Origin: a phage | Length of the DNA: 64,000 bases | Assembly (NCBI GenBank): GCA_020241125.1 | Contig: GCA_020241125.1_4708.1 | Direction: 5' to 3' (one strand) | Part shown: positions 31,457 through 49,194 of the stretch, one piece after another | How the letters are laid out: every line of letters begins with the position of its first letter | Position numbering within the stretch: position 1 is the first letter of the stretch | Program-made: the position numbers and the translations under genes | Notes under the pieces: model-generated | What the model was told of the DNA's origin: nothing | Seen by the model: the letters and a program-made list of their open reading frames with translations, nothing else | Database searches by the model: none

Positions 31457-31831
31457 TTAATGTTCGTTCCAGATGGCATCTTCCGGTGGAACAATAGGAT
31501 CTTTCTTCGGCATTGATGGCACTTCATGGCGATGTTTACGGAACTGCCTATCAATAACCTCACGAAGCCGGTACGCATCAACCCATGTTGATTTATTGAA
31601 CAGCTCCAATGTCACAGTTAATCGTGTTCTTGACATTGAATAGCTTTTCTTTGCAATCAAATTGGGATAATTCAGTTGAGCGAACCACGCACGTATTTGT
31701 GCTTCGGTAAAAGCGATGCTGTAATAACTAAGTTTACCGTCATTAAAATCGTGCGCGTGGGTGTAACGTCCAGCGTAACGCCAGACAAGATGCACATTCA
31801 GATCGATCCATGGTGGGGTGGTATCAGCCAT
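31457..31831 (-). CDS. Hypothetical protein
   Basis: 124-aa ORF. Confidence 0.45.
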   Translation of the reverse strand: MADTTPPWIDLNVHLVWRYAGRYTHAHDFNDGKLSYYSIAFTEAQIRAWFAQLNYPNLIAKKSYSMSRTRLTVTLELFNKSTWVDAYRLREVIDRQFRKHRHEVPSMPKKDPIVPPEDAIWNEH

Positions 31832-31840
31832 GTGTTACCC

Positions 31841-32410
31841 TCAACGATTCTTCATCACTTTACCCAGGCTTTCGATATTATCCCAAAAGCGATTTTTACT
31901 TGGCGCATCGCCGACGATAACCGACATCAAATCACGACGTTCGCGACTGATGATGCCTTGTGATTTCCAGATCACCATCGTCCAGCAAGCGGCCAGAACG
32001 AACAGATGGTTAATGCTCGGTTTGGTTTGCGCGATGAACGCAAGCCATGCCCAGATACCGGTGTATACTAGCGTCACTAAAAAGAGCGAGATTGTTGCAA
32101 CGACAACAACGAAGTTTTGGACAGCGGGTTGATTAGCGTTATCATGAATAGCGGTAAGATCAGGAAGATTACCTTCAACTGAACTCGTTTCATCGATTTC
32201 CAATTCTTCGATTTCTTTTCGTGTGTCAGGAGCTAATCCAGCATCATCGAGATGCTTTTTTAACCGCTGTATGCTTAATCGTTGACCGACAGGAATGTTG
32301 ATGTTGTCGTAACTATTAAGCGCATCAACCAGGGAGCGTCCATCAACGAGAACCAAGCTCGCGGTACCCATCGTTTGCGGTTTTATTTTGTAAAGGTCTT
32401 TTACTTTCAT
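31841..32410 (-). CDS. Hypothetical protein with internal hydrophobic segments
   Basis: 189-aa ORF; hydrophobic stretch VVVATISLFLVTLVYTGIWAWLAFI. Confidence 0.5.
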   Translation of the reverse strand: MKVKDLYKIKPQTMGTASLVLVDGRSLVDALNSYDNINIPVGQRLSIQRLKKHLDDAGLAPDTRKEIEELEIDETSSVEGNLPDLTAIHDNANQPAVQNFVVVVATISLFLVTLVYTGIWAWLAFIAQTKPSINHLFVLAACWTMVIWKSQGIISRERRDLMSVIVGDAPSKNRFWDNIESLGKVMKNR

Positions 32411-32431
32411 GTAGACACCACCTCCAACGTG

Positions 32432-35044
32432 TTAAGCGTCCGGCGTAAAATCAAAAGGAATGTCCGTACGAATGATATCATAACGTTTTCCGAGGAAATA
32501 AAACTCTTCGGGAACCTGACCGGGAATAATGCTATCACCGATGAACTGCGGATACGCCCAGATGTACTGAGTGAGTCCTTCGAACATATCCAGGTTATTT
32601 GCGTGGTTACCCATGATACGTTTCCAGAGTTCGCGTTTATACGGCGTTTTAACATCGAAACCATAAAGCGGTGCAAGATCTTCACCAGGAACAAATCCCA
32701 GGTAATAGTGAATCTGACTAACCGGGAAACCAAGCGTATCTCGCGGAATGGTGATCGCTTGCTCAGCTTTGGTGACATGCGTTTCAATAATCCAGTCGTA
32801 ACACTCTGAATAGAACCGATCGAATTTCTCTGGATTATACCACGCTTTGGGAAGATTCAGTTTCTCCGTGAACGCATTCGACATGATCGTCGGTAAGAAC
32901 GGAAGAACACCGGTTTTGATCTGCGTGTATTTCGATTTTACCCGGTTAACCAAATTCCAGCAACTGTATCCTAACTGTTCGTTACAAAACTCAACGTAGA
33001 GATCGTAATCACCGCCGGATAATGGGTTGTTGATATCACCAATGTCTGCAGCGTATTTGTTGGGATATCGGTTATTGAAAGCCAGTTTGGTTTGGTAATC
33101 GTAGATACACGGTTTGTTGTTCGCTGTATTGATCCACCACCAGGGTTCACCCACCTGTACACAAATGTCCTGGACATGAGGGTAAATAATATCGGCAAAC
33201 GCGGTTAACACATCCCCTAACCACGCCATCGCCTGTTGGTTACATGGAGACAGCAACCAGGACGGTGGTGTATATCCGGTTGCTGCGATGTTTCCTTCCC
33301 AATCCTGCTGCGCCCACTCGAACGGGCAGGCTGTACTCATCAATTCGTAACTTAAACTGATGGTGACAGAGAAATGGTGTTTTGCAGCATATGCGGCGAA
33401 AGCTTCATGCCACGCGATACAGGGTGGATTTAATACATCCGTGGTGTTCACCAGTAACTTACCCGCACTTGGCGTCCAGACAGTATCGTAGAAATGCGAC
33501 ATTCCAACATAATGCACTAATTCATCTTGATACCCCGCATAAACCAGGTTCTCAAATACACGCTCTGGCGTGATGTTGTAATGGTCATCGTAAGCGGTTA
33601 TCGCACGAAGTTCGTGTGGTGTACAGTGGTGACGATTAACCGTCATTTCCTGATACACCCCATCGATAGGAAGAATCTCGAGGGTTAAACCGAGGTCGAT
33701 TGGCGTTTCCAGATAGGTCGTTTCAGTCGCACCTTCCTTATAATGTCGAGAACTCATGCTGAACATCAACGATGCTACCGATTCGAGTTCGATAGGCTCG
33801 TCAGCATAGAACCCCGCCATTGCGTCATTGAAATCGATCGTTACGATTGCGCTTCTACCGTCTTCAGAGACATCGGTGGCGTATCGGGTTAATGAGATAT
33901 ACTGACGGCTATCGTCTTTGTGTACGACGGTTAAAACCGGCGGGTTTTCGGTATCTGCAAAGTTACGCTGATCGCCAGTAAACGTGATCTTCGCTTTAAA
34001 GATCAAACCGAATAACGACGTCATGGGATCATACGCAATACAACCGTGATCCAGCGTATCCGTTGTCCGCCATTCTATCCCGACCAACCCGTTAGCGGTA
34101 TGGCATCGCATATACGCATTAAGGACCATGTCTTCACTGACAACCGCGAAGTTCTCTGTTGACTGACCGTTGATAATCCAATACATCGGTTGCCAGAGGT
34201 TACGCGTACCTTTTGCGTAGCGGTAGGTTGGTGCGCCTTTAGGGTTGCCGTTATTGAGATGGAATACGGCAGTACCTTGATAATGGTCGTTCGTATTAAT
34301 CGGAACACTGTAAGCGTCACCGAGGTCCGTACGTTCCACCTTCGTGACCGTTGCGTTTTCAAATAACCCACGCAACGCTGGTAAACCGATATCTTCAGGC
34401 GCGTTTTCTCGACGAATCGCATCCGCGATGCGATGGGCTAAGGCGGGGTAAATAGCTTCACCCTGTTGTAGGTTTGCAAGACCTACAAAGCGATCAGGGT
34501 CGATACCAGCAATCAATAACTCAACATCACCCTTCGTTCTATCGTCGTTAAGATATTTCAGTCCGGTAAGGTCAAGATGCTGAATAAGCGACAACAGGTT
34601 GTATTTACGGTTTTCAACAGTTAGTACAAGATCGCCTGCCCAAACCAAACTTCCCTCATCCGCTGTTACTTTAACGGATTGTCGGCCTGTGGTAGACGTT
34701 GTTGTCGTTTTATTTAATTGTCCTTGTAGGAAGTCGGTTGCGAGGTCAAAGGCAATACCGTAACGGTCAGCGACCGCTTGCATGATTTCACGTAACTGGG
34801 TATCTTCTTCAATGATAATCTTGACAGGTATTCCCAGGAACGCTTTAGCGAGGTCTCGTTTAACCAACGAGACGAATACGGATTTGTAGTATCGGCTTCC
34901 ATCTTTCCCTTTAAAAAGAATGGAGGTTGTTTCGGGTGCCGATAGAACACGTGCAAATTCAACATCGTCGAAAGTAAGAGAAAGTCCGTTTTTCTCGTTG
35001 GTCAATCTTAGTATTTCATTTTGCGCGGTTTCATGTAACTTCAT
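32432..35044 (-). CDS. Receptor-binding protein (tail spike/fibre) with shared N-terminal anchor domain
   Basis: 870 aa; N-terminal ~110 aa (Y..VKRDLAKAFLGIP..I....YGIAFDLATDF) homologous to N-termini of the 40698, 41384 and 46786 products. Confidence 0.55.
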   Translation of the reverse strand: MKLHETAQNEILRLTNEKNGLSLTFDDVEFARVLSAPETTSILFKGKDGSRYYKSVFVSLVKRDLAKAFLGIPVKIIIEEDTQLREIMQAVADRYGIAFDLATDFLQGQLNKTTTTSTTGRQSVKVTADEGSLVWAGDLVLTVENRKYNLLSLIQHLDLTGLKYLNDDRTKGDVELLIAGIDPDRFVGLANLQQGEAIYPALAHRIADAIRRENAPEDIGLPALRGLFENATVTKVERTDLGDAYSVPINTNDHYQGTAVFHLNNGNPKGAPTYRYAKGTRNLWQPMYWIINGQSTENFAVVSEDMVLNAYMRCHTANGLVGIEWRTTDTLDHGCIAYDPMTSLFGLIFKAKITFTGDQRNFADTENPPVLTVVHKDDSRQYISLTRYATDVSEDGRSAIVTIDFNDAMAGFYADEPIELESVASLMFSMSSRHYKEGATETTYLETPIDLGLTLEILPIDGVYQEMTVNRHHCTPHELRAITAYDDHYNITPERVFENLVYAGYQDELVHYVGMSHFYDTVWTPSAGKLLVNTTDVLNPPCIAWHEAFAAYAAKHHFSVTISLSYELMSTACPFEWAQQDWEGNIAATGYTPPSWLLSPCNQQAMAWLGDVLTAFADIIYPHVQDICVQVGEPWWWINTANNKPCIYDYQTKLAFNNRYPNKYAADIGDINNPLSGGDYDLYVEFCNEQLGYSCWNLVNRVKSKYTQIKTGVLPFLPTIMSNAFTEKLNLPKAWYNPEKFDRFYSECYDWIIETHVTKAEQAITIPRDTLGFPVSQIHYYLGFVPGEDLAPLYGFDVKTPYKRELWKRIMGNHANNLDMFEGLTQYIWAYPQFIGDSIIPGQVPEEFYFLGKRYDIIRTDIPFDFTPDA

Positions 35045-35066
35045 TAAAAACCTCAGCCCTTTAGAA

Positions 35067-35708
35067 TTAAATGTACTGCTTACCGCCCACGAAGGAAGTT
35101 AACCAGTTCCCGCTGACGAGTTGTGATACCCAGCCTGGAACGGCTCTACCATTCTGGCTCATGATGTTACCACACCAACCAGGGAATCCGGGACGGATGT
35201 AATAGAAAGTTAAATTGTAGAGATGGCAATTCCATACCGCAACGTTATGTTTACCAGAAACCGCTTTAAAGACAAACGCGACAGGTAACGGAGACGATAA
35301 CAATTCGGTCACAGGGACGGCTGACCAGTTCGCATTCGCGTTCCATGGTTGCCAGGTATGGCTGCGCGAGTCGCAATATACGTTACCGTTGTTACCGCGC
35401 CCACCCGCATTCCACCACAGCGACGGACTCATGTTCTTAAGTGAGGTAAATTGCTGCGGTGGAATATTAGGAATAATAACAGGGTTGGTACCTTGCCCAT
35501 GTTTCTTTTCTTTTGCGTTCACATACCCGCTTATCGATTCGAGGTATTTGACACCAGGATAATTATTCTGGACTTGTGTCGCAATATCACGAACATCGAA
35601 CGTCCAGCAGATCATGGTGTTGTAGTAAGCATCGGTGTTGTCGTACCATGCGTTACCATCTTGTAAACGTGCGCCACTATTCGGTGTTTTATCTGTGTTT
35701 ATAGCCAT
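35067..35708 (-). CDS. Hypothetical Trp/Asn/Gly-rich protein, paralog 1 (conserved C-terminal module)
   Basis: 213 aa; C-terminal ~45 aa (RPGFPGWCGNIMSQNGRAVPGWVSQLVSGNWLTSFVGGKQYI) nearly identical to C-terminus of 35820..36572 product. Confidence 0.55.
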   Translation of the reverse strand: MAINTDKTPNSGARLQDGNAWYDNTDAYYNTMICWTFDVRDIATQVQNNYPGVKYLESISGYVNAKEKKHGQGTNPVIIPNIPPQQFTSLKNMSPSLWWNAGGRGNNGNVYCDSRSHTWQPWNANANWSAVPVTELLSSPLPVAFVFKAVSGKHNVAVWNCHLYNLTFYYIRPGFPGWCGNIMSQNGRAVPGWVSQLVSGNWLTSFVGGKQYI

Positions 35709-35819
35709 AGTGTTGTCCTATACTGCGATGATTGAGATATCGGATGCCGGATGTGTGTTGCCATCAGGTGGTACGTACAGAAACACCCACAGATAAAACA
35801 GTAGCTTCTCTAACTTCAA

Positions 35820-36572
35820 TTAAATTGAAGTTAGATATTGTTTACCTCCAACAAACGACGTTAACCAATTACCTGAAACAAGTTGCGATGCCCAGCCAGG
35901 CACTGCCCTACCGTTCTGGCTCATCACGTTACCTGCCCATCCCGGAAAACCAGGTCGGAAAATATATACTTGAATATGTGTTAAAGCGTTATCATTACCA
36001 CCGCCAACAGCAACGTTACGACTCCCAGATGACGGGAAATATTCTTTTAAGAACAGAGGATCGGTTGCTAATAAAGATGCGGGCCAAGGGTTCGCGGATG
36101 CATCAACATCGAATTCGGTCCATCGCCATTTACGTCCCGTGTCGAACCATGTCGATGTACCACCACCCCTCACGGCAAGATTGCGCGCATCACGGACATT
36201 ATAAATTGATTCGATGTTACGCCATCCACCTTTTGCAGCGTTTGCTGCATAGCAAACCGCATTACCACCATTCTTCTTCTCGTAAACGGTTCGTTTGATA
36301 TGAACACGGTCGATGAACGCTTCACCGTATTTGTTGACGAGCGTTTGTGCGATATCACGAAGATCGTGCATGTGAAAAGCGATGTCTTCGTTATGGAACC
36401 ATGTTGTCTGGTTCCAGACGGTACCGTTTGGTTCGGCACACATCGATCGGATATTGTTGCGTTGATTAATCGCGATAAAACCCATTGTATACCTCGTTCC
36501 TATTCTCAAAAAGGAAATTTCATACGATGACGCCATAGCAGCTCCTCCTTCCCTTACGGGTTGGAGGAGCAT
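35820..36572 (-). CDS. Hypothetical Trp/Asn/Gly-rich protein, paralog 2 (conserved C-terminal module)
   Basis: 250 aa; shares C-terminal module and DVRDIAxxVxN-Y motif with 35067..35708 product. Confidence 0.55.
   Translation of the reverse strand: MLLQPVREGGAAMASSYEISFLRIGTRYTMGFIAINQRNNIRSMCAEPNGTVWNQTTWFHNEDIAFHMHDLRDIAQTLVNKYGEAFIDRVHIKRTVYEKKNGGNAVCYAANAAKGGWRNIESIYNVRDARNLAVRGGGTSTWFDTGRKWRWTEFDVDASANPWPASLLATDPLFLKEYFPSSGSRNVAVGGGNDNALTHIQVYIFRPGFPGWAGNVMSQNGRAVPGWASQLVSGNWLTSFVGGKQYLTSI
36541..36570 (-). terminator. Conserved palindromic hairpin (member 9)
   Basis: CATAGCA-GCTCCTCC-ttCCCttacGGGtt-GGAGGAGC-ATAC. Confidence 0.55.
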
Positions 36573-36578
36573 ACTTAA

Positions 36579-37085
36579 TTACTCGCTGATAACCTCAACG
36601 GAATTGGGATCAGCGATCATCGCACGGTCAGTAGAACAATTGAAGAAGACCATGCCGACACCATCGCCGTTCGAGTTCAGGGTTGAACTTACGTAAGACA
36701 GGGTTGGTTTATTCATGCGGTAGAAGCGTTCGCTGGTTGCGGTATTGAACCCCAGGTCAACGTAGTCTTTCACCGTGGTGTACAACTGTGTGGACTCGAA
36801 AACGGTTACCGGAGAGTCGACGGTAAATTGACTACCTTCGTCTACAACCAGAACTTTATCGTTCCAGATTTCAGTGGTTGAGAACTTCGGTTTCCAATGT
36901 TCGAATTCCTGGGTTGCACCCCAGCAAGAATACACAGCGAGATTGCTGTTCTTCTCAACAGGTTTCAACCCCACCAGTTGTGTCAGGTCTTTATCCAGGT
37001 TCGGTAAGCCTTCCAGCGTAGCACACCCACCCAGAGAAAGTACCATCAACATACCAAGAACGATCGCACAAAGTTTCTTCATCAT
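36579..37085 (-). CDS. Putative lipoprotein
   Basis: 168 aa; N-terminus MMKKLCAIVLGMLMVLSLGGC is a classic signal peptide with lipobox (LGGC). Confidence 0.6.
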   Translation of the reverse strand: MMKKLCAIVLGMLMVLSLGGCATLEGLPNLDKDLTQLVGLKPVEKNSNLAVYSCWGATQEFEHWKPKFSTTEIWNDKVLVVDEGSQFTVDSPVTVFESTQLYTTVKDYVDLGFNTATSERFYRMNKPTLSYVSSTLNSNGDGVGMVFFNCSTDRAMIADPNSVEVISE

Positions 37086-37133
37086 TAGATTTCCTTATGT
37101 GTTAACGGAAGTGACTTCCATAAGGATTGATGA

Positions 37134-40100
37134 TTACTTTTTGAGCGCTTTAAGTTCTTCTTCCATCGCTTCCACTTTTGCCGTAAGCTTCTGTACTTGT
37201 TTGATTAATGGAACCACCAAACGTTCGTACATAACACCTTCGGCGACGAGTCCGTTAGAAGAAACGATAGCGGGGTCATCTTCTTCGGTTGCATCACGCC
37301 AATGCACGTATTGTGGTGCGATCTCACCAACCTCTTCGGCAATCAACCCATACCAACCCCAATCCTTGTTGTCGGCTTCGCAGGTAGAACGATACCAGAC
37401 AGGACGCATCTCCAATACTTTATCCGCTTGTTCATCCGTGATATTCTCGATATCTTTCTTATAGCGCCGCGACGACGTTGAACGAAACACATTGTTGATC
37501 CCAGCAGTAGGACTGATATACATATTAGCCCCGCTGGTTGTAGTGCTAATGTCCCATACCGCAAATCCGCCGTTACTCCCATTTCTCACGACCAACGTAT
37601 TGGCAATAATATCCAGGTTATTGTTGTAACCGGTTAACTGGTTTTCGGTGACAAAATCGGATAAGTTAACGGAGTAGTTCTTGCTGTTATAACAACGACG
37701 CCATCCTGGGCTGTTGGTGCTGCCATTATAGTTGTCGTAGCTATAAATGAACTCGGAGTTGGTTTTCGCACCACTGACGGAAGACGTGGTTGCGGTGGTA
37801 ACACGGATAGTGTAGTTCGTCATCCCGAAGCTAACGACCTCGATAACCGCACCAGCCAGAGGAATAATACCACATTTGGTTTCACTGTCTGGGATGTATG
37901 CGCTATCGGCAGCAGCGAAGGAGCAACGTGCGACCCAGGCACGGGTATTGAATGCACCTTGGTTCTGTAATAACGTAATAAACGATGAGGTCGTAATCGA
38001 GCTGTTATTATCACCTGTGATCAACCAGCCGGTTGGACATGCGGTAGCACCAACGTTTTTCGCTGTTAGCGTGATGTTCTTCGATCCGTCGAAGGCTACG
38101 CCGCTGATGGTACGTGCAGTCTGTAGCTTCGTCGCCGTTGCCGCGTTCCCTGATGTGTTCTGGTTGCCTGTTGTATTCACACCCGGGATACTATCCTTAG
38201 ATGTGTAGATCTGTGCCCATTCCGACCATTTCGCATCGGTTGAATCACGACGTGAACGTAGGTAAGCTGGAGCGTGTGCACCCGAGGTACCTGACCATCC
38301 AATGAGGATTTCACCTTCGCCGACCGATGAAGCGCCTTTAAGATGAACAACGTTACCGTAGGCTGTAGGGTATCCGTTATTGTACGCTTCATACATCTGG
38401 ATACCCGTATTGCTGCCCTGGGTCGCATTAGCTAAAGCGGTAACCCGTCCCTTGGAAGCGAGCACGTTAATGCTAAAGCTAATATCGGTTGTACCGTCAA
38501 AGGCGACCCCATTAATCCTCCGCGCTGTTTGGAGTTTCGTGGCAGTAGCCGCATTACCAGAGGTACTCTGATTGCCTGCTTTGTTCACACCTGGTAAATC
38601 AATGTTGGCGGTTCCATCAAAGGACACGCCCCCTATGGTTCTCGCCGTCTGAAGTTTTGTTGCTGAACCAGCGTTTCCGGAAGTGCTTTGATTACCCGTC
38701 GCGTTGACACCTGGTAGGTTAATGCTAGCAGAACCATCAAAAGAAACTCCACCGATCGTAATAGCTGTTCGCAACTTCGTGGCTGTCGCAGCGTTACCCG
38801 TCGTATTCTGATTACCAGCTGCATTGACGCCAGGTAATGCGATATCAGCTGTGCCATCGAACGCGACACCTCCGATTTTACGGGCGGTTTGTAGCTTGGT
38901 TGCTGTAGCAGCATTACCGCTGGTATTTTGCGTACCGGCTTTATTTACACCAGGAAGATCGATGTTAGCAGAACCATCGAAGCTGACGCCACCTATCGTT
39001 CTTGCAGTAGCAAGTTTAGCGGCTGTAGCAGCGACGTTACCGACTTTTAACCATTCTCCCCATGGACCATCCACACCGTTCCATGATGCCGTTAAACTGC
39101 GCACGTATATGTTTCCTGTACGTACTGTGTAACGTTGTGTTCCACCGAATTGACCGGCTGGGAGCACTTCGATGTAACCTACAGCATTTGCTTCAGGGAA
39201 ATTGTGGGCAGCATCGGCATTCGTTGATGTTTGTTTGGACCAAATACCCACAGACGCTTCAACCGGACCGTAGGTATCCAGATTTGCATCGGTGGGGAGC
39301 TGTCCTCGAAAACGTCGGAATAATGAAGCCGATAACCCCAACGTTGTTTGCATCCCTTCAATGCTTGACTGCGATAGAAGCGCCCGAGCTGTCGACGTGA
39401 TGGCCGCTAAAGCAACCTTATCCGTACCGGTAAAAAACGGGAATTTGTTTGCTGATGTTGCTAAACCTGAAAGGGCGGTCAGTAATGCGTTAAGGGGTTG
39501 TTTCCCGGCTAGCGCGTTAGTCACAGTCGTTGCAAAGTTTGGATCATTACCTAACGCTTGAGCTAACTCGTTAAGCGTATTTAGCGCTTCTGGAGACGAG
39601 TCGATCAGCGACGCGATAGCACGCATCACAAATTCCGTGTTGGCGATCTGTTGACTGCTATCGTTCTCTGCAGCCGTAGGTGCTGCTGGGATACCGGTGA
39701 ACACAGGGTTATTAAGATCCGCCTTAAGGGCGATGAGACGTCTAAGTGCTTCAACATCGACTTTCAGGTTTTCCCATCCGACGAGATAACCATCACCGGT
39801 TGTGTGATAACGGTTGTACCAAAAATCGCCATTAACGCCAAAATAAAATATTCCCTTCTCTTCGTATTGTGGGCCAGAACTGTTCCGTGATGAGCTAATG
39901 TATTTTATTTCGATAAGGCCGTTGAATACCACTCCTGGGATAATTTTGTCGTTTCCAGACGATTGCGATACCTGGTAAGCCCCCGGTGTTGTGGCTCTAA
40001 CCCAAGTCAAGAATTCTGATGTTCCAGCGTTACCGCTAAAACGCTTGACGTCGGTAAGTATCGCACCAAAACCGAACATACCGGGTAAAGCAACTCGCCC

Positions 40101-40691
40101 ATCGGTACGGTCACGAATATCTGTTGCAACAACAGGCAACTGCTTACGAACATCATTAACTGCTTTAGGTGTCGCTGATTTTGTCTCATCGTCGCTATCG
40201 ATATCACTGCTCAGGATGGTCAGTCCTCGAGTATCTGTGGTTGCATCAGGAAGAAACGCGTTATCTAACACCTTAAGCTGTATCGCATCCGTGTTATTAA
40301 CAACAACATACACTTGACAGTTAAGAACGCTGGTTGCGCCTTCGGTAGGCACAGGCTTGTATCTTTCTGGTGCACTGCATACGGCGACCAGAACACCTTG
40401 ATTGTCATACAGACCGATCTCACGTACCCAGAACCCACCTTGACTGGCAGGAATAATACCCTCAACAATAATCCTGGTTGTGTCGTCAACATCAATACGG
40501 ATGTTGGAAACTTCCCCACGATAAACTTCGTGTACAAGTGCTGTTTGGCTAGCATCGGGGGTTGGTGTAGAACCGTTGCCATCACCAACGGCAAAATGCG
40601 TAATTCTTAGTTTCTCACCGTCAGGAAGTAATGCTGCGGTGATACGTTCAGCGCCTTTATCGGTAATGACCGTTTTATAAGTTGTACTCAT
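37134..40691 (-). CDS. Long tail fibre protein with C-terminal intramolecular chaperone (peptidase S74-like) domain
   Basis: 1185 aa; N-terminal region resembles phage tail-fibre N-termini (P2 gpH-like; LIDSSPEALNTLNELAQALGNDPNFATTVTNALAGKQP); about 6 tandem ~38-aa repeats (GGVSFDGSANIDLPGVN...ATATKLQTAR); C-terminus SSRRYKKDIENI...WYGLIAEEVGEIAPQYV...LVVPLIKQVQKL matches S74 chaperone domain pattern. Confidence 0.75.
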   Translation of the reverse strand: MSTTYKTVITDKGAERITAALLPDGEKLRITHFAVGDGNGSTPTPDASQTALVHEVYRGEVSNIRIDVDDTTRIIVEGIIPASQGGFWVREIGLYDNQGVLVAVCSAPERYKPVPTEGATSVLNCQVYVVVNNTDAIQLKVLDNAFLPDATTDTRGLTILSSDIDSDDETKSATPKAVNDVRKQLPVVATDIRDRTDGRVALPGMFGFGAILTDVKRFSGNAGTSEFLTWVRATTPGAYQVSQSSGNDKIIPGVVFNGLIEIKYISSSRNSSGPQYEEKGIFYFGVNGDFWYNRYHTTGDGYLVGWENLKVDVEALRRLIALKADLNNPVFTGIPAAPTAAENDSSQQIANTEFVMRAIASLIDSSPEALNTLNELAQALGNDPNFATTVTNALAGKQPLNALLTALSGLATSANKFPFFTGTDKVALAAITSTARALLSQSSIEGMQTTLGLSASLFRRFRGQLPTDANLDTYGPVEASVGIWSKQTSTNADAAHNFPEANAVGYIEVLPAGQFGGTQRYTVRTGNIYVRSLTASWNGVDGPWGEWLKVGNVAATAAKLATARTIGGVSFDGSANIDLPGVNKAGTQNTSGNAATATKLQTARKIGGVAFDGTADIALPGVNAAGNQNTTGNAATATKLRTAITIGGVSFDGSASINLPGVNATGNQSTSGNAGSATKLQTARTIGGVSFDGTANIDLPGVNKAGNQSTSGNAATATKLQTARRINGVAFDGTTDISFSINVLASKGRVTALANATQGSNTGIQMYEAYNNGYPTAYGNVVHLKGASSVGEGEILIGWSGTSGAHAPAYLRSRRDSTDAKWSEWAQIYTSKDSIPGVNTTGNQNTSGNAATATKLQTARTISGVAFDGSKNITLTAKNVGATACPTGWLITGDNNSSITTSSFITLLQNQGAFNTRAWVARCSFAAADSAYIPDSETKCGIIPLAGAVIEVVSFGMTNYTIRVTTATTSSVSGAKTNSEFIYSYDNYNGSTNSPGWRRCYNSKNYSVNLSDFVTENQLTGYNNNLDIIANTLVVRNGSNGGFAVWDISTTTSGANMYISPTAGINNVFRSTSSRRYKKDIENITDEQADKVLEMRPVWYRSTCEADNKDWGWYGLIAEEVGEIAPQYVHWRDATEEDDPAIVSSNGLVAEGVMYERLVVPLIKQVQKLTAKVEAMEEELKALKK
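38080..39060 (-). repeat. Intragenic tandem coding repeats (~114 bp units) within the tail fibre gene
   Basis: Repeated peptide unit visible in translation; DNA units diverged but periodic. Confidence 0.6.
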
Positions 40692-40697
40692 GGCGTT

Positions 40698-41225
40698 TTA
40701 TCCCGGGTAAATAGTGATGACATCACCGATGACAGTTGCCGCACCGGCGCAAAGATACGCTGGTGATGTATCACGCTGGTTTGTCACGATAAGATCCAAT
40801 TGCCCACGCCAAACCATGGAGGTATTCGCGATGGGAATCGAGATCTTCTTGGAAGTATCGTCACGAAAATTAATGGCGGTAGCAAGGGTAGCTGAATCAA
40901 AATCAACGTCGGGTTCAAAGTTGAAACCGTATTGATCCGAAATAGCTTGAATAACCGCTCTTATGGTTGTTGTTTCAACCGACTCCAAAACGATTTTTAT
41001 CGGTATTCCTAGAAATGCTTTCGCTATATCACGCCGTGTGTAAGTGATAAAACTTTCACCACACCACCTTGTTCCTTCATTTGCTGTGACGATCACTTTT
41101 GCCCTGTTAACACCAGAACTCCCATCCAGGGTTAAAGTGAGATCGGAGTTGCTGAATACACTACTGTTACGTTGGTTTATCAACGTAATAAGTTCGTCTT
41201 TCCATGGTGGGTAAAGTGAACGCAT
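40698..41225 (-). CDS. Short protein carrying only the shared receptor-binding-protein N-terminal anchor domain
   Basis: Start set at ATG 41225 (MRSLYPPWKDE) preceded by GGAGGAGGG; ORF-track start at 41408 would run through the upstream hairpin; product shares RRDIAKAFLGIPIKI...YGFNFEPDVDF with other RBP N-termini. Confidence 0.5.
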   Translation of the reverse strand: MRSLYPPWKDELITLINQRNSSVFSNSDLTLTLDGSSGVNRAKVIVTANEGTRWCGESFITYTRRDIAKAFLGIPIKIVLESVETTTIRAVIQAISDQYGFNFEPDVDFDSATLATAINFRDDTSKKISIPIANTSMVWRGQLDLIVTNQRDTSPAYLCAGAATVIGDVITIYPG

Positions 41226-41338
41226 AAGCGCACCCTCCTCCAACAATCGAATTAATATGCAAAAACGCCTCGAAACAGGAGTGCGATTCGAGGCTAACGT
41301 AAACAGTCTTAACGACCGCATAAAATTCCGCGCATATT

Positions 41339-41371
41339 GCCCCTCTATCCCGACAAAGCGAGATAGAGGGG
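41339..41371 (-). terminator. Palindromic hairpin (member 10)
   Basis: CATATTG-CCCCTCTATC-ccgacaaagcga-GATAGAGGGG. Confidence 0.5.
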
Positions 41372-41383
41372 AGGATAATACGA

Positions 41384-43153
41384 TTATGCTGCTACATATC
41401 CAGGCCAACGTTCTCTTGGCCAGTTTGTTGCGCCCTGTCCAACGTTGTCCTTACCAGAAATTACATTACTTACGTCCCAACCACTAAGATCCTGGTTAAA
41501 TGCGGTGTTGTTACGCATCATGAGGTCGATATTACGTAATGATTGGGTATTCCAGCCGGAAATGTCTTGGTTGAATGCCGTGTTGTAAGCAAACATGTTA
41601 ACAACGTTTTGTAATTTTGAAGTGTTCCAGCCGCTAATATCGCCATTGAACTGCATGCTCGAGAACATACTGCTAGCATCGATAAGACTATCTGTTTTCC
41701 AGTTAACCAGCTTGTTTTCATCAAGTGCGTTGCAACTACTGAACATGTAACTCATGTTGTTAACTTTGGATACATCCCATTTATCTAACCCGTTACCAAC
41801 GAACTCGTAACAAGCTTGGAACATCCAGCTCATGTCGGTAACCTGGCTCACATTCCATTTGCTAAAGTCGAGGTTGAGTTTTGCGCATCCGGAGAAAGTT
41901 TTATACATACTGGTGATACGACTAACATCCCATTCTTGAATGTTAGGATCATTAAGTATAGATAAGAATTGGAACAATCCGTCTAACGACGTCCATTTCT
42001 CTGGAATACGGTTTGGTACTGTACGGAGCGATGAAAGGTTATTGGTTGACGGAGAGCGGAACATACCGTTATCCCAATTTACGATTTCCGTAATGTTGTA
42101 CCCACGGATCGTTTGGCGTCCATTACCATTATACACAGACCCTGTTGCAGTTATTGTATATTCGTTTGTATCAGCATACGTATGTTCAGCCTGTGTAGGC
42201 CACTCACCTATTACATCCCTATTCCCATCACCCCAATCGATGGAAATATTTGTCCAACCATCAAGATCTAGGGTAACGGTCCCGCCATTGGTCTTCAGGA
42301 TGTATTTACCTGCATTGTCGGTATAATAACAAACGATCATCGCACCGTATAGGTTACCAATTTGCCAATCATCCTTTTCTGTTACCGCTATTTGCGCTGT
42401 ACCACGTTGTAAGAAAAGCACCGTACGGTTGTCGTCAGTCTGTAACGCGGTTAATGCTTGAGCTTTGTCGTCGCCGGTAATTTCACCAGCTTCCACTAAA
42501 GCATTTAACATTCTTTCAAAGTATTCGATGGGTAATTGGTGTCCTACAGACATGTCAACTGATGGAAGAATGAGATCATCTAATGCTGCGGCAGTTGCAA
42601 GGACTAATGATCCCTTGGTGGGGTCTGTTTCTTGGAGGTAACGTAGTCCCGTAATCTGGTATGCTTGAATGATTGTAATCAGATCCAGCGTATCGTTAAT
42701 GACCTGTATCTGTAAATGCCCAGACCAAACATAGCTGCTTTCAGCAATTGGTAATTCGACCGCCTGAATACCTGACGTTTCAAAGCTGATCTTTTTATTA
42801 AGATCGGTTTCCAGGAAATCAACCGCGAGATCGAAATTTATACCGTACTTTTCAGCGATGGAATCTACGATGTTTCTGAAAGCAACATCGGTACTTACGA
42901 TAAAACGTAACGGGATTCCTGCAAATGCATTAGAGATATCTCGACGAACATATGTGAGTGACTGCTCGAAGAAATACGGGCTGTTATCTCCAGGCTTGAT
43001 GGTTATCTGGCACACCTCAGGGTGTTCAGCTGGGATGAACGATTCGAATTTAACATCGGATTCTTTCAACGAAAGCTTGTTCTTCCGGTTTACCAACGCC
43101 AGAAGATCGGCTTTCCATCCAGGATAAACTGTAGACATAAGCACTCCAATCAT
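41384..43153 (-). CDS. Receptor-binding protein with DUF285/BspA-like repeats and shared N-terminal anchor
   Basis: 589 aa (start possibly at internal Met MSTVYPGW); N-terminal anchor homologous to other RBPs; C-terminal repeated units FxxxxAFNQDISGWNTxxLxNxxxMF typical of DUF285/BspA-type repeats. Confidence 0.6.
   Translation of the reverse strand: MIGVLMSTVYPGWKADLLALVNRKNKLSLKESDVKFESFIPAEHPEVCQITIKPGDNSPYFFEQSLTYVRRDISNAFAGIPLRFIVSTDVAFRNIVDSIAEKYGINFDLAVDFLETDLNKKISFETSGIQAVELPIAESSYVWSGHLQIQVINDTLDLITIIQAYQITGLRYLQETDPTKGSLVLATAAALDDLILPSVDMSVGHQLPIEYFERMLNALVEAGEITGDDKAQALTALQTDDNRTVLFLQRGTAQIAVTEKDDWQIGNLYGAMIVCYYTDNAGKYILKTNGGTVTLDLDGWTNISIDWGDGNRDVIGEWPTQAEHTYADTNEYTITATGSVYNGNGRQTIRGYNITEIVNWDNGMFRSPSTNNLSSLRTVPNRIPEKWTSLDGLFQFLSILNDPNIQEWDVSRITSMYKTFSGCAKLNLDFSKWNVSQVTDMSWMFQACYEFVGNGLDKWDVSKVNNMSYMFSSCNALDENKLVNWKTDSLIDASSMFSSMQFNGDISGWNTSKLQNVVNMFAYNTAFNQDISGWNTQSLRNIDLMMRNNTAFNQDLSGWDVSNVISGKDNVGQGATNWPRERWPGYVAA
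41416..41956 (-). repeat. DUF285/BspA-like coding repeats (~69 bp period)
   Basis: Repeated SGWN(T/V)S...N...MF units in translation; periodic DNA similarity. Confidence 0.5.
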
Positions 43154-43175
43154 GGGGCGGTAACCGCCCCATCGG

Positions 43176-46100
43176 TTAAATTGTTGGTTTCACGTCGCGT
43201 AATAGGGCAATATAATAGCCTAATCCTCGGAGGATCTCCCCACTCCAGAAACCAAAATACATTCCGTCTCTGCCGAGATTAGTACTATCTGGCGCAGGAC
43301 TCCACCCACCATTCATTACATCGTCAACGGTGTAACGGTTGATGTAGTTCTCAACAATCTCGTTATAAACGTTAACAGCAACAGGATAGCCTTTATCGTT
43401 GGGATGTCCGTACAACATCGCTAACGACGCGCCCGCCAACCATAATCCTGCCATGTGACCAGTAAAGTCATTAGGGATAAAAGCTGGAGGTTTATCCATC
43501 GGAAAATCCGTAGGAGATTGATAAGCGTTTTCCTGTTGATACGTGAACAAGAAATCAATCCAATGACTGATGTAAGTGGTTAACTTCTCGGGGACAGCTA
43601 AACCATGATCGAGCAGTCCAGCATAAAGCCTCACCGCTGAGAAGAAAGCCCTCGGCTGATAACCAGACCATGCTGTCTGATCGCCGAAGTGGTACATCGT
43701 AAAATCGTTGACTTTCGATCCGCTTGGCGCATCCCAACGATCCCACACGTACGCACTTGCACCCGGCCCTAAAACACCGAATTTCTGATGATACCACTGT
43801 TGTGAGTCATACCAGAAATTCACAACATTCTGGATCATGAGGTCACGTCGTTCAGCCGTTACATCCATATCCAGGAAGACCCATGGATGCTGGTAGCCAG
43901 GATAAGGCTGACCACGCCAACTGTCGAACGTCGGTGCGTTAGGGATATAGTTGTTTGAGAACGGAATAATACCTGGAGTATAAGGCAATGGATCTAGACG
44001 CTGGTTAACAATCGTGCAGTCACCAACACGTAACGTACCCTCCGCCTCAAAGGTTGCTTTTAACGTAAACAACATGGTATATCCGTCATCCGTGGCGTAA
44101 GTTGATGGTGGATTGTTGATAGCGTAGAGCTTAAATACCCCTTCAGCGATATCGCCGTCATCAGGCAAGAACAGAATTTCAGTTGAACCATCGCCCCACA
44201 CAGGTGCGGAAGGTTTAGGGTCAGTGCCAGCATGGTTAGGTTGATACCCTGAGAGCGTCCACCCATTCGCCGAAAGTGTCAATGTATTTCTTGCTGTGGT
44301 GGCTGGTAACATCTGCCACCATCGCCAACCATTTGCATCTTCTACACGAACGTTGTAGTCAATCGACGCGAAATAACTGACCTGCCTTACGATCTGTTTT
44401 GCGGTTGGATTGAATTCAAATTGTCCGCCTGCCGCAGTAAGCTGCGCTTTTAAGAACAACCCATCCCAGGAATCTTCCACTGCTTCGCTGAATTCTGTTG
44501 TGATGGCGACATCATCTTTCCAGCCGACTTTATCGGCCGATATCAACACAGAACCTGTAACAGCATCACCGGTTGACGCTGAAGCTTCATCAACCGCATC
44601 AGCAGGAATCAACGAGCCTATTTTGAAATCCCATTCTTTCGGTTCAGCGCTGGAAGGTAATACCAGCTTGTACGTTTTGGCTTTCGCTTCGGTTTTGTCC
44701 AAAGAAAGCGATAATGAGATCTCAACTGGAATTGCAACGCCTGCTGTATCTTTACCTCCGCAGGTTACACGAAGAATTGAATCACGATTGACGCGGAACG
44801 GAATGGCCTGCTGTTCAAGGTAAATTTGTGCTGAAGATGCTTGAATCACGATCCAACCATCGGTATCACGTGTGATTGTGAACGGCGCTTTCGACGGGTA
44901 TGTATACGTGTAAGCGATACCGTCGGTGTCGTAACGATCGGTTCCTTTTACTTGACGGAAGAACTTATCGTTAGCGTCAATACGGGTATATTCTTCAATC
45001 GTAAACAAAGACGCCTTGTACGCTTTCTGATAACGCTCCTGCTGCGTTAAACGGTATAAGGTGTAGGCTGCTTCACAAAACCACTGTTCAGCGTCTGACG
45101 CGTTTCCCATGTAGTCTCTGGTGACCGGCACCTGGATCGGTCGGTTATGCTGACACTCGTTCGTTTTGATAAGGTATCCGCCATATTCAACAGGAACACG
45201 CGGTGCCCATGCAACCAAGTAAGAACCGCTGACGGATTTATTTTTGAGTACGATAGTACCTACTTCATCGTCAGTACACGCTTCAAGATCGTCCCCGTCA
45301 GCACTTACGTAACGTTTTGTGCGTAACGCAACTTTCTCGATAGGGAACACCGTACCCTTTGTATCCCAGTCAATCGTCCCATCATCATTGGTTTTGAACA
45401 CATCGGCGTTCAAATTCTGCCAGCCGAGTTTACCTTCATAGACCTGAACAACAAGATCCATGTATTCCCCGAACGTTGGTGCCCCATGTGTTATTTTCCC
45501 GATACCGTTGGTGAATGTAACCGCTGTGTCATGGAAACCCCCGTGTGTTGGGTAATCGTCTTTTGCAAGAGGATAATGAGCCAACACCGGTTGCTTACCA
45601 TTAACGATCCAGTTAGCGATCCAGCGTGTCGGTGTATCCGGTGGTTCAAGGCCTGCGTAGAACGCTTTTATATACGCATCGAACGATGCCTCTGCTAATG
45701 TGAGATAATGCGCTTTAAGCTTGGTGTTGTCCGTTGTATGACTGAATATACCCGCACCCAGAATTAACAACGACTGTCCTTCTGTTGTTGCGTCACCATC
45801 CGGTTGTGCTTCTTGTCGTGTTGCTGCAATGAAATGACGGTTGTTTACCATGACCCCGCTTTCATTTAACACGTAATGATCGGTTTCTGGGTCGGTAAAC
45901 GTTCCTGTGTTTCGGGTTAAGAATCTTGCATGGCCATAACCAACGAAATTAACCGGCGACGCTGTAATCATCCATTTACCGATAAGTTGAGCAACATCAT
46001 TATAACGCTCGGATGCGGTGATTTGTTTCACGTACCAGTCTTTATGGTTAAATGTCCAAAGCAGGAAGTAATAAGTTGTATCGATTTCCATCACTGGGAA

Positions 46101-46772
46101 CGTCGGCGTTAACGGCTCCAGCGTTAAGTAGTTGCTCCAGTCAATCTGTCCGCCAACCACCGATGGGGTAATCTCTAATAACTGACACCATTCATAACGG
46201 TCCGGTACACTACTGGACGTTGTTGGTAAAGGTAACTTGTATACGCCAGTACGATTCAGATCGAACGCTTTTCTAGCCGATCCTAAATCAACATAAATAC
46301 TCGATGATGCGCTTGCACTATATGCCCCCAAAGCACCTAGCGTTGACCGATACATTGAGATGAACAACGTATCTTTCCAGTAAGGGTTATCCTTGGTTGG
46401 TTCTAAAGCGATTTGTGCGGAGATGCTGTTCCATGTCCCTAACTGGTATGTCGCATTTAAAGATTCTTCTGTGAAATAACTTTCTGCAATCGTCAGATGG
46501 AACTGCTCGTTCAATAACGCGAGTGCGGCGCGGCCAGTAACATCCTCGTTACCGGTTTCTTTTTTCACGATCGCGCCGAACGGAAACAGTGTCGCGAATG
46601 ACCGTTTTGGTTTATTAACCGTAACCGTCCCTGTGTAATTTCCAACACCGTCAAGTTTTTGACTATCGCCAACAGCAGTGACTGCGATACCATCAGCCGG
46701 GATATTTGTTTTATTTAGTACATTGAGTTGGTCAACCAGATCCTGCTTATCGTCAGGTAAGAATGTCGCCAT
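43176..46772 (-). CDS. Hypothetical very large protein (1198 aa), probable tail/baseplate-associated protein
   Basis: Long ORF embedded in the tail-fibre cluster; no recognisable motif; lacks the shared N-terminal anchor. Confidence 0.5.
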   Translation of the reverse strand: MATFLPDDKQDLVDQLNVLNKTNIPADGIAVTAVGDSQKLDGVGNYTGTVTVNKPKRSFATLFPFGAIVKKETGNEDVTGRAALALLNEQFHLTIAESYFTEESLNATYQLGTWNSISAQIALEPTKDNPYWKDTLFISMYRSTLGALGAYSASASSSIYVDLGSARKAFDLNRTGVYKLPLPTTSSSVPDRYEWCQLLEITPSVVGGQIDWSNYLTLEPLTPTFPVMEIDTTYYFLLWTFNHKDWYVKQITASERYNDVAQLIGKWMITASPVNFVGYGHARFLTRNTGTFTDPETDHYVLNESGVMVNNRHFIAATRQEAQPDGDATTEGQSLLILGAGIFSHTTDNTKLKAHYLTLAEASFDAYIKAFYAGLEPPDTPTRWIANWIVNGKQPVLAHYPLAKDDYPTHGGFHDTAVTFTNGIGKITHGAPTFGEYMDLVVQVYEGKLGWQNLNADVFKTNDDGTIDWDTKGTVFPIEKVALRTKRYVSADGDDLEACTDDEVGTIVLKNKSVSGSYLVAWAPRVPVEYGGYLIKTNECQHNRPIQVPVTRDYMGNASDAEQWFCEAAYTLYRLTQQERYQKAYKASLFTIEEYTRIDANDKFFRQVKGTDRYDTDGIAYTYTYPSKAPFTITRDTDGWIVIQASSAQIYLEQQAIPFRVNRDSILRVTCGGKDTAGVAIPVEISLSLSLDKTEAKAKTYKLVLPSSAEPKEWDFKIGSLIPADAVDEASASTGDAVTGSVLISADKVGWKDDVAITTEFSEAVEDSWDGLFLKAQLTAAGGQFEFNPTAKQIVRQVSYFASIDYNVRVEDANGWRWWQMLPATTARNTLTLSANGWTLSGYQPNHAGTDPKPSAPVWGDGSTEILFLPDDGDIAEGVFKLYAINNPPSTYATDDGYTMLFTLKATFEAEGTLRVGDCTIVNQRLDPLPYTPGIIPFSNNYIPNAPTFDSWRGQPYPGYQHPWVFLDMDVTAERRDLMIQNVVNFWYDSQQWYHQKFGVLGPGASAYVWDRWDAPSGSKVNDFTMYHFGDQTAWSGYQPRAFFSAVRLYAGLLDHGLAVPEKLTTYISHWIDFLFTYQQENAYQSPTDFPMDKPPAFIPNDFTGHMAGLWLAGASLAMLYGHPNDKGYPVAVNVYNEIVENYINRYTVDDVMNGGWSPAPDSTNLGRDGMYFGFWSGEILRGLGYYIALLRDVKPTI

Positions 46773-46785
46773 TATTTACTCCACC

Positions 46786-47616
46786 TTAATCGTAACTAAA
46801 ATAAAGTTTGCTGCTGACGCCGCTATCGGAATGAGGTTTTAACACCAGAACAGAGCTTCCGAACGACGGAAGTATTGGAACATCTAAATCGTTCGCATCG
46901 GCAACTTTTCCATTATAAACGACATTGGCTGTTGTGATGAGTTCCCAGGCTAAGGTATAACTCATTGAAATCAGCGACGAGGCTAAACGGAATGCATTGT
47001 ATCCTTCTGGAGTATCTCCAACCGACATCGTACGTATCGCATCTTGCGGCGGTAAATTTAGCTTGATGCCGTAGGTGCTGAATGTGTGGAAATCCCCTTG
47101 TTTACTATCTTCTGGATAATACGAGGTTAGCGGTTCTCGCACCGTAATCAGTTCGCTAATATCGGTACTTACCGCTTTTCGGGCGAGGAATTGAAACGTA
47201 CCGTACCACGATGCTGATGTATCAGAATGAACGGGAACAGCTATGGTTTTCTCGTCGCTTTCAAATTTAACCTGCGACACTAACGCTGAAGAATCAAAGA
47301 TCGTTAAATCGATCTTCAACCCATACTTCTTAAACAGCTGCGTTAAGCAGTCTGCTATCGTCGTCTTATCAGCAACGACAATAAAAGGTTGGTGTTTGAT
47401 AAAGAGCTTATTAATGTCTCGACGTTGAAGATAAACCTGTACGGGGTCTTCGATATAGTAAGCCGATTGTGGTGCGGGGACTATAGAAAGGCGTAACCGA
47501 CCTGATGCACCATACCAGGCTGGCGTTAACGTAACGTCTGACAGAGACAACGGGTGCTGGAGATAGGCGTTTATTTTAGATAACACTTCCTCCTGCCATG
47601 ATGCTTCAGGATACAT
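46786..47616 (-). CDS. Receptor-binding-protein family member with shared N-terminal anchor domain
   Basis: 276 aa; N-terminus YLQRRDINKLFIKHQPFIVV...YGLKIDLTIFD aligns with other RBP N-termini. Confidence 0.5.
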   Translation of the reverse strand: MYPEASWQEEVLSKINAYLQHPLSLSDVTLTPAWYGASGRLRLSIVPAPQSAYYIEDPVQVYLQRRDINKLFIKHQPFIVVADKTTIADCLTQLFKKYGLKIDLTIFDSSALVSQVKFESDEKTIAVPVHSDTSASWYGTFQFLARKAVSTDISELITVREPLTSYYPEDSKQGDFHTFSTYGIKLNLPPQDAIRTMSVGDTPEGYNAFRLASSLISMSYTLAWELITTANVVYNGKVADANDLDVPILPSFGSSVLVLKPHSDSGVSSKLYFSYD

Positions 47617-47665
47617 GCTGACCTCATAGATGATCGTTGATAGGAAAGAAACCTAATTCATACCA

Positions 47666-47733
47666 TGGGAGCCTCAAAAAAAAAAAACGAAAAAATAGGA
47701 AAACGGTGTTCATCCTTTTTAGGGATGAACACC
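47666..47733 (-). terminator. Intrinsic (rho-independent) terminator
   Basis: Perfect 11-bp stem GGTGTTCATCC/GGATGAACACC (47705..47733) followed on the minus-strand transcript by a long U-tract (plus-strand A-run 47666..47700); lies just downstream of gene 47755..48330. Confidence 0.8.
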
Positions 47734-47754
47734 GCGTACCGTTATATCGAACGA

Positions 47755-49076: not shown

Positions 49077-49194
49077 TTTTTATTCCTTAAACAAAAGATT
49101 GTCTTTTACGCGACATGATTACAAGTACACAGGTTACTGAATTTCTGTAAAAGTTAATTTTCGTAAACTAAAAGAAAATGTATCCGTGTTTCCT

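Follow-up and report, generated by a model that had tools for sequence, protein, structure and literature searches.

The region described here lies in a stretch of phage DNA of 64,000 nucleotides (nt) (NCBI GenBank assembly GCA_020241125.1, contig GCA_020241125.1_4708.1), which we call the window and to which all positions refer unless another contig is named. Between positions 32432 and 47616 we identified nine consecutive genes, all on the minus strand, which encode in the order of transcription products of 276, 1198, 589 (as the open reading frame, ORF), 175, 1185, 168, 250, 213 and 870 amino acids (aa) (Table 1). An earlier note, made from the letters alone, had described this segment as a module of interchangeable receptor-binding proteins (RBPs) that dock through a common N-terminal anchor. 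According to profile searches, five of the nine genes encode proteins of the DUF7941 family. By its sequence the phage is a Goslar-like chimallivirus, that is, one of the phiKZ-like jumbo phages that form a nucleus, with E. coli as host. Over 75% of its length the region shares 93% nucleotide identity with Escherichia phage vB_EcoM_Goslar, the gene order is collinear with Goslar gp093 to gp086 save for defined insertions and deletions, and the flanks carry the vRNAP beta subunit and further Goslar genes. Four of the five DUF7941 proteins have Goslar orthologues with 86–99% amino-acid identity in the same order.

Table 1. Genes and hairpins of the DUF7941 locus, listed in the order of transcription after the upstream hairpin.
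Feature	Position	Strand	Remarks
Terminator-like hairpin, 13-bp stem, then T run	47703..47735	-	From terminator scan; ends the preceding transcription unit, upstream edge of the module
276-aa DUF7941-only protein	46786..47616	-	First gene of the module; Goslar gp93 orthologue
1198-aa protein, divergent DUF7941 + tail-protein module	43176..46772	-	Goslar gp92 orthologue
GC-rich hairpin GGGGCGG-TTA-CCGCCCC	43154..43170	-	3' of the 1198-aa gene; kept in Goslar and L004
584-aa protein, DUF7941 + DUF285/PARCEL repeats	41384..43138	-	ORF reaches 43153 (589 aa); nothing at that position in Goslar and L004
175-aa anchor-only DUF7941 protein	40698..41225	-	Goslar gp91 orthologue; immediately upstream of the long fibre gene
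1185-aa P2/P1-type long tail fibre with S74 chaperone	37134..40691	-	Pfam PF12571, PF03406, PF13884
168-aa protein with lipoprotein-type signal	36579..37085	-	Goslar gp88 orthologue
250-aa Trp/Gly-rich protein	35820..36572	-	Extra paralogue of the 213-aa protein; no counterpart in Goslar and L004
213-aa Trp/Gly-rich protein	35067..35708	-	Goslar gp87 orthologue
870-aa protein, DUF7941 + NCTSP_N + TIM barrel	32432..35044	-	Goslar gp86 orthologue

The earlier note had proposed that four products, of 870, 176, 589 and 276 aa, share a homologous N-terminus. Their genes lie on the minus strand where the note had placed them, and the homology survived formal alignment with BLASTP and Pfam. All-against-all BLASTP gave E-values of 5e-34 over 204 aa for the 589- and 870-aa products, 1e-24 and 2e-21 for the 176-aa product against these two, 6e-12 for the 176- and 276-aa products and 1e-7 for the 276- and 589-aa products, the pair of 276 and 870 aa being the sole weak one (E 0.033). 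Each of the four scored above the gathering score of 27 bits of the Pfam DUF7941 model (PF25613), with 149.6 bits for the 870-aa protein, 72.4 for the 589/584-aa protein, 62.0 for the 175-aa protein and 38.3 for the 276-aa protein (E-values from 1e-9 to 2e-43; 1.6e-43 for the 870-aa protein), and the four also matched PHROGs 1037 and 2935 (“virion structural protein”). The motif Y..RRDI..AF.GIP ... YG..FD...DF that the note had reported was seen in the alignment. Several lengths had to be corrected: the conserved core comprises about 150 aa rather than about 110, extending to 205–215 aa among the 870-, 589- and 276-aa products, and the anchor-only product has 175 rather than 176 residues, with its ATG at 41225 preceded by the codon CTT. 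The paralogous N-domains are 19–39% identical to one another. For the 589-aa ORF the second ATG (43138) is most probably the true start, which gives a product of 584 aa: the first ATG abuts the hairpin that follows the 1198-aa gene, the second is preceded at a distance of 6 nt by a GGAG, and the public gene calls have 584 aa; exactly this product is called on public contigs.

An exhaustive search of 1.84 billion representative proteins returned 336 clusters with E ≤ 0.001; a word-indexed homologue search with the N-domain alignment had returned 14 close relatives only. The family domain nearly always begins at residue 1; the complete entries that were listed have lengths of 146–1537 aa, and on the scale of the family this N-domain is joined to many different C-termini. 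A family profile built from 154 of the 336 representatives matched residues 7–143 of the 1198-aa protein (E 3.5e-8, and 1.7e-9 in a second run), the N-terminus of which had not been detected with a profile of the four sequences, and matched no ORF in the 64 kb beyond the five members. The earlier note had correctly counted the 1198-aa protein as part of the module and had missed its kinship with the other four. This fifth member remains below the PF25613 gathering threshold. Its relatives P0166 and P0167, with N-termini 33% identical to its own, match the family profile with E-values of 5e-14 and 9e-8, and in two further relatives, P0169 and P0170, a DUF7941 domain that Pfam recognises precedes the same C-terminal module (P0170, E 6e-19 with the family profile). 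Some DUF7941 proteins are filed under bacterial assemblies, such as a 1.26-Mb contig of Scandinavium sp., a 180-kb contig of Salmonella Panama and E. coli entries (P0167 of 1512 aa, P0013 and P0014). The 238-kb contig from which the window derives likewise stands in a bacterial assembly. Most of these are probably co-assembled phage genomes; the 1.26-Mb Scandinavium case, if real, would clash with an exclusive occurrence in chimalliviruses.

Structure prediction of the shared N-domain, which the earlier note had proposed as a check, led to the phiKZ baseplate. The AlphaFold2 (AF2) model of the 175-aa protein had a pLDDT of 88.4, with residues 1–150 confident and the tail (residues 151–175) low. 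A Foldseek search with this model yielded one PDB match at E ≤ 0.001, chain 0 of 9xqd (150 residues) from the outer peripheral baseplate of phiKZ (E 3e-7, probability 1.0, TM-score 0.64 normalised to the target, 150 aligned columns). A PDB search by sequence only, with a narrow N-domain profile, returned nothing meaningful. In phiKZ one gp127 is found per star lobe, where it caps each gp139 spoke at the end of the band of gp139 dimers (PMC13250141), and the part modelled in 9XQD corresponds to gp127 residues 1–150 (Basu et al, bioRxiv, April 2026, 10.64898/2026.04.21.720040, in which the code is spelled 9QXD). The N-domain fold of phiKZ gp127/gp126 (9XQD) is thus like that of the protein studied here, and both phages are chimalliviruses, but the sequence identity is only 13%. 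The family has about three members in phiKZ, which lack large appended domains, and the fibres of that phage are of the gp131 type. Among predicted viral structures (BFVD) we found 78 matches at E ≤ 0.001, and the named ones among the 50 best listed all came from phiKZ-like jumbo phages (Goslar, Eowyn, PhiEaH1, RisingSun, EarlPhillipIV, RAY, PhiPA3, EL and Moabite). Because its sole solved structural relative sits in the outer peripheral baseplate of phiKZ, the role of the shared N-terminus as a virion attachment module is supported by the predicted model.

The earlier note regarded the C-terminal regions of its four products as unrelated; the 276-aa protein has no unrelated C-terminal domain. 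When compared with known folds, as the note had also proposed, the C-terminal parts of the 870-, 584- and 1198-aa proteins were found to resemble host-recognition domains of other phages. The 870-aa protein (99% identical to Goslar gp86) contains a full DUF7941 region (residues 2–277) followed by NCTSP_N (PF23844, E 1.3e-10, 41.3 bits) and a TIM barrel (PF23845, E 3.4e-85, 286.6 bits). Against the PDB, this barrel matched Gp64 (9lc0_M, E 4.4e-30) and the sheath protein gp65 (9lc0_I, E 5e-7), of which gp65 is the receptor-binding protein of phage N4 (PMC13434306). The sheath heterodimer gp64–gp65 of N4 (9LC0, 9YF4) has NCTSP_N and the TIM barrel in common with the 870-aa protein. In N4, however, it forms a sheath around a podovirus tail, whereas in the present jumbo phage, which has a contractile tail, it follows DUF7941 as a fusion and no such sheath is possible. 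The 584-aa protein, 46% identical to Goslar gp161 (tblastn), carries PARCEL/BspA repeats (PF03382, DUF285, 151 bits; NCBIfam PARCEL repeat).

The 1198-aa protein (PHROG 2871) continues from residue 280 with a “tail protein” module, and its residues 280–1196 match tail proteins of 534 phage records, including rV5-like, SPN3US-like and Erwinia phages. In a Foldseek search, its AF2 model (pLDDT 81.7) matched carbohydrate-binding sandwiches of the CBM11 type and, for the C-terminal barrel, the (α/α)6 barrels of GH88, GH105 and Cel48F with probability 1.0, the global TM-scores being low because the protein has many domains; a sequence search against the PDB gave no match. By sequence or predicted structure, the C-terminal parts of the 870-, 584- and 1198-aa proteins have homologues or structural counterparts among those carbohydrate-directed parts of other phages that bind or degrade receptors. 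The 276-aa protein, which matches PHROG 1037, has no separate effector domain because the DUF7941 model covers it from end to end (profile positions 63–274 of 276), with N-domain, linker and C-domain. Residues 151–276 of this protein and residues 151–285 of the 870-aa protein showed no similarity in BLASTP, and a C-domain common to both is indicated by the Pfam model coverage alone.

The earlier note held that these proteins belong to the virion, and the Goslar orthologues were indeed detected in purified virions. Basu et al (2026) list ten DUF7941 proteins for Goslar (gp22, 23, 31, 33, 34, 86, 91, 92, 93 and 161), already with gp92 among them, and found all of them in purified virions. Their estimated copy numbers per virion (Table S4 of that preprint) are 4.5 for gp86, 4.9 for gp92, 4.8 for gp93, 1.2 for gp91, 8.5 for gp31, 27 for gp34, 111 for gp161, 112 for gp33, 577 for gp22 and 2144 for gp23. 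In negative-stain electron microscopy (EM), gp22 formed filaments, and AlphaFold 3 models place the linker (together with the C-domain) of one protomer onto the N-domain of the next in a head-to-tail manner; in the view put forward there, the peripheral baseplate would anchor a “DUF7941 fibre cloud” (10.64898/2026.04.21.720040). In our analysis, the profile runs through a linker motif after the N-domain in 144 of 158 members (91%), with the consensus a-l-d-L-s-d-i-i-t-n-t-d-l-d-g-l-n-y-p. The hidden Markov model of the family spans this linker (positions 150–170) in the 870-, 584- and 276-aa proteins; its match ends at position 147–149 in the 175-aa protein, in the orthologues of the latter (P0008 and P0035) and in the 1198-aa protein.

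We read the locus as a host-recognition module of the peripheral baseplate of a Goslar-like chimallivirus, in which five DUF7941 virion proteins would present recognition proteins together on chains, and we give this reading a probability of roughly 0.65. Following Basu et al (2026), the N-domain would act as a socket, held either by the end of a baseplate spoke or by the “plug” formed by the linker and C-domain of another DUF7941 protein. Different recognition proteins could then be displayed together on chains radiating from the baseplate and would not compete for one site. The 870-, 584- and 276-aa proteins, with a socket and the linker motif, could extend such a chain; the 1198- and 175-aa proteins, with a socket only, would end it. 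Host range would diversify through gain or loss of whole genes and exchange of fibre tips, not through switching. Several points weigh against this reading. The Goslar baseplate map shows no resolved density for DUF7941, and the chaining rests on one preprint, with AlphaFold 3 models and negative-stain EM of gp22 alone (10.64898/2026.04.21.720040). The orthologues of the module proteins are of low copy number (about 1–5 per virion), a range that agrees with filaments no better than with six fixed positions on the baseplate, and the roughly 1.2 copies of gp91 (two peptides), against about 43 fibre chains, count against a stoichiometric adaptor. The label “socket only” we infer from an absent motif. 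Finally, the N-terminal 280 residues of the AF2 model of the 1198-aa protein are of low confidence, though the order of secondary structures matches that of the DUF7941 N-domain, and because of this low confidence the assignment of its N-domain rests on profile scores and transitivity via relatives.

Part of this evidence is shared with a simpler arrangement, close to that of the earlier note, in which alternative RBPs each dock through the N-domain to the same baseplate site, six per virion, as mixtures or by switching. The N-domain has the fold of a domain that occurs once in each sextant of phiKZ, where the gp139 spoke ends, and Goslar gp86, gp92 and gp93 are each estimated at about five copies, near six. 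However, these three proteins at about five copies already exceed six sites and other members reach 100–2000 copies; the linker motif in 91% of the family and the gp22 filaments point instead to chaining of N-domain to linker; and the divergence among the paralogous N-domains is hard to square with one docking surface. Nor did we find machinery for switching. Inverted or direct repeats of at least 24 nt were absent from positions 31800–47800, and Pfam and PHROG scans of the nine products revealed no invertase or reverse-transcriptase domain. Invertible fibres of the P1/Mu type and diversity-generating retroelements have flanking inverted or template/variable repeats, unlike this locus, and switching by an invertible segment was rejected for want of repeats. 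In classical modular RBPs the anchor is conserved and the tip varies. Between this phage and Goslar the DUF7941 proteins do not follow this pattern: identity in the first 150 aa and in the rest was 98.7 versus 99.2%, 94.7 versus 97.3% and, in the 276-aa protein, 92.7 versus 98.4%, and a replaced tip was seen only in the P2-type fibre. The common-site arrangement is thus weakened by summed copies above six, by the divergence of the N-domains, by the lack of switching repeats and by N-domains that are not better conserved than the rest, and we consider it improbable. A common site is kept as a possibility for the low-copy members, each near six per virion; as a single site for all it is too simple in view of the published chaining and of summed copies far above six. 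Interchangeability, for its part, does not agree with the co-detection of the orthologues in Goslar virions and the lack of switching repeats. The earlier interpretation was partly supported: an attachment module is joined to recognition domains, yet the proteins are not interchangeable, there is no single site and the anchor-only gene is no remnant.

It is less probable still that the DUF7941 proteins are purely architectural parts of the baseplate, with the appended domains as decorations and host recognition left to the long fibre alone. The 276- and 175-aa proteins lack an effector, most family members are N-domain-only or DUF7941-only, many homologues are annotated merely as “virion structural protein” and the DUF7941 genes of Moabite adjoin baseplate genes, all of which would suit such a role. 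On the other hand, the appended domains are homologous to N4 sheath subunits, of which gp65 is receptor-binding, and to tail proteins of many unrelated phages, and the horizontal sharing of the C-terminal module of the 1198-aa protein across more than 500 phage records is typical of host-range modules. We therefore retain the host-recognition module with DUF7941 chains as the preferred reading. Branched multi-tailspike systems, such as those of CBA120/Kuttervirus, G7C (gp63.1–gp66) and rV5-like phages, join their RBPs through N-terminal adaptor domains and likewise place several RBPs of different specificities on one virion through N-terminal attachment modules; in rV5-like phages, the C-terminal module of the 1198-aa protein also occurs in tail proteins. 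These systems form a fixed branched complex of trimers, whereas DUF7941 is an unrelated fold restricted to chimalliviruses, proposed to form a head-to-tail polymer of up to thousands of subunits with no indication of trimers.

The 175-aa protein consists of the DUF7941 N-domain and a non-canonical tail of 25 aa (...SPAYLCAGAATVIGDVITIYPG). The gp91 lineage keeps this tail of its own, ...SPA.L.AGA.T.......I.PG, in place of the linker motif. The earlier note had offered two explanations for the gene, a truncated remnant or an adaptor. The former, taken as a decaying remnant of a longer RBP gene, appears very unlikely, and so does expression only as a read-through fusion with the fibre. These readings could draw on the roughly 1.2 copies that make this protein the least abundant family member of Goslar virions, on a chimeric version found on one metagenomic contig and on the spacing of the two genes, since here and in Goslar the TAA stop, 6 nt and the ATG of the fibre gene are in frame. 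Intact ORFs of 173–175 aa are, however, preserved in Goslar (86% identity) and in the distant relative L007 (42%), the predicted fold of the protein is confident, and proteins of 120–200 aa are the largest size class of the family (44 of the best 150 representatives). In L007, moreover, the spacer measures 68 nt and the fibre lies in a different frame, and TAA is the least leaky stop codon. A read-through fusion was rejected on the ground that the in-frame 6-nt spacing is not kept in L007. In the window, the junction occupies positions 40689–40700 on the minus strand, where the TAA, the 6 nt AACGCC and the fibre ATG stand in one frame, identically in Goslar; the spacing probably reflects translational coupling rather than read-through.

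The adaptor role fared somewhat better: the conserved tail and the adjacency to the fibre speak for it and the low copy number speaks against it. In this phage as well as in Goslar, L004 and L007, the 175-aa gene is the immediate upstream neighbour of a P2/P1-type fibre gene, and together with the fibre N-terminus it forms one block that is 85% identical to Goslar between flanks of 95–99%. This pairing fits an adaptor role or co-inheritance as a unit, and its sequence context makes the 175-aa protein the best candidate for an adaptor between the fibre and the DUF7941 proteins. As a tentative extension, we suggest that the 175-aa protein might be a dedicated adaptor, its DUF7941 socket fitting into the baseplate or filament network and its own tail holding a horizontally acquired P2/P1-type fibre. 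In the same proposal, whether or not a protein has the linker motif would act as a rule of wiring that separates chain extenders from chain ends, and recombination between paralogues at RRDI..AF.GIP, as on the metagenomic contig L003, would rewire the recognition domains. Taken jointly, these two ideas are speculative and more probably wrong than right. If true, the adaptor would account for the mounting of a foreign fibre on a jumbo phage whose baseplate is unrelated. Both the split by linker motif and the pairing of gp91-type proteins with P2-type fibres are concrete hypotheses that can be tested cheaply.

On L003 (IMGVR_UViG_3300045988_173921), positions 2449–4435 contain a 182-aa chimera that changes at the RRDI..AF.GIP motif from the 584-aa type (residues 1–78) to the gp91 type (the rest). 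On the same contig a 2.8-kb deletion joins the genes for the 276- and 1198-aa proteins, and the fibre gene is missing while the assembly-protein gene remains. A search with an exact 12-nt seed found no common repeat of at least 24 nt between the 584- and 175-aa paralogues, so a simple collapse of repeats in L003 is unlikely; the chimera and the deletions may represent a real deletion variant or an assembly artefact. Elsewhere, the short member P0038 adjoins a DUF7941-DUF285 gene and not a fibre. On contig L008 (3954–6124), from another uncultured relative, a 146-aa gene encoding only the N-domain adjoins a 576-aa DUF7941-DUF285 gene, with overlap of start and stop, beside helicase and HD-domain genes. 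This arrangement indicates that pairs of short and effector-bearing DUF7941 genes recur outside a fibre context.

The DUF7941 family and the orthologues of four of the five members have been described before, and the locus is a further example of a known module; the Pfam family and the classes of appended domain are common to Goslar and to this phage. New here are the 584-aa DUF7941-repeat gene, the second gp87 paralogue, the swapped fibre tip and a gp91-like protein without linker motif beside a P2-type fibre. The first of these lies between the gp92 and gp91 orthologues in this phage but not in Goslar, as a clean presence/absence difference of 1745 bp relative to positions 15096/15097 of the Goslar locus, with the microhomology TGGAGTG / TGGATATG at its junctions. 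Goslar retains the GGAG and a 12-nt stretch that agrees in 11 of 12 bases with the last three codons plus stop of the 584-aa gene. This would favour a deletion in Goslar as the origin of the polymorphism, but no clear direction of gain or loss follows, since the gene is missing from L004 too, where the spacer differs; L003 retains the 5' part. The second gp87 paralogue (250 aa; window positions 35761–36481) is likewise extra relative to Goslar, and the 501-bp Goslar gene gp096 (hypothetical protein) has no counterpart at the corresponding site (49160–49189), the flanks of which are 95% identical. The locus contributes no new principle, and the “DUF7941 fibre cloud” is so far a proposal at the level of a preprint. 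As a near-isogenic relative of Goslar, the phage offers a natural comparison set for host range and virion composition.

The long fibre, the lipobox protein and the two Trp/Gly-rich paralogues are present as the earlier note had described them. The fibre (PF12571, E 8.7e-42, 143 bits; PF03406, 31 bits; PF13884 or S74, 34 bits) is built of a P2/P1-type N-domain, a repeat shaft, a mosaic tip and a C-terminal S74 intramolecular chaperone. Goslar has instead a fibre of 1324 aa and a separate assembly protein, and the tip encoded at 37123–38084 has no Goslar counterpart and has been replaced. Within this tip (residues 861–1185, positions 37137–38111), residues 861–1005 are 63–65% identical to the fibres of P1 and phage Cyrano, and residues from about 1016 to 1169 are 55–67% identical to lateral tail fibre/chaperone regions of T1-like Drexlerviridae.

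The 168-aa protein has a lipoprotein-type signal (…LSLGG|C), is 97.6% identical to Goslar gp88 and matches PHROG 9559 (unknown function). In spite of this signal, gp88 is among the most abundant proteins of the Goslar virion preparation, with about 740 copies per virion by mass spectrometry, compared with about 19 for gp87 (10.64898/2026.04.21.720040). The 168-aa protein may belong to the virion proper, or it may be a lipoprotein that masks receptors and is carried along with membrane material during purification. The 213-aa protein is 95.8% identical to gp87 and aligns with the 250-aa protein at 38% identity (BLASTP E 6e-35), 39 of the last 41 aligned residues being identical. The conserved Trp/Gly tail, RPGFPGW.GN.MSQNGRAVPGW.SQLVSGNWLTSFVGGKQY, suggests a common binding partner. 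This Trp/Gly family comprises four clusters only, all from close Goslar-like relatives. When the 213-, 250- and 168-aa proteins were scanned against Pfam, NCBIfam and PHROG, nothing matched even at E ≤ 5 except PHROG 9559 for the 168-aa protein.

A nearly identical public sequence is NCBI contig ABDDKD010000007.1 (238,282 bp, assembly GCA_020395325.1), with 99.99% identity; over 21.7 kb the two differ by one substitution and one change in the length of a poly-T tract and by nothing else. The poly-T tract, at 47676 after the terminator hairpin upstream of the 276-aa gene, counts 12 T in the window as against 11 T in that contig. The sole substitution in the 21.7 kb is at 35822, where the 250-aa gene ends in ATT TAA and two near-identical public contigs read ATT AAA, which gives an ORF of 284 aa with 34 more, hydrophobic residues; this position is the centre of a perfect palindrome (35809–35835) with a 12-bp stem.

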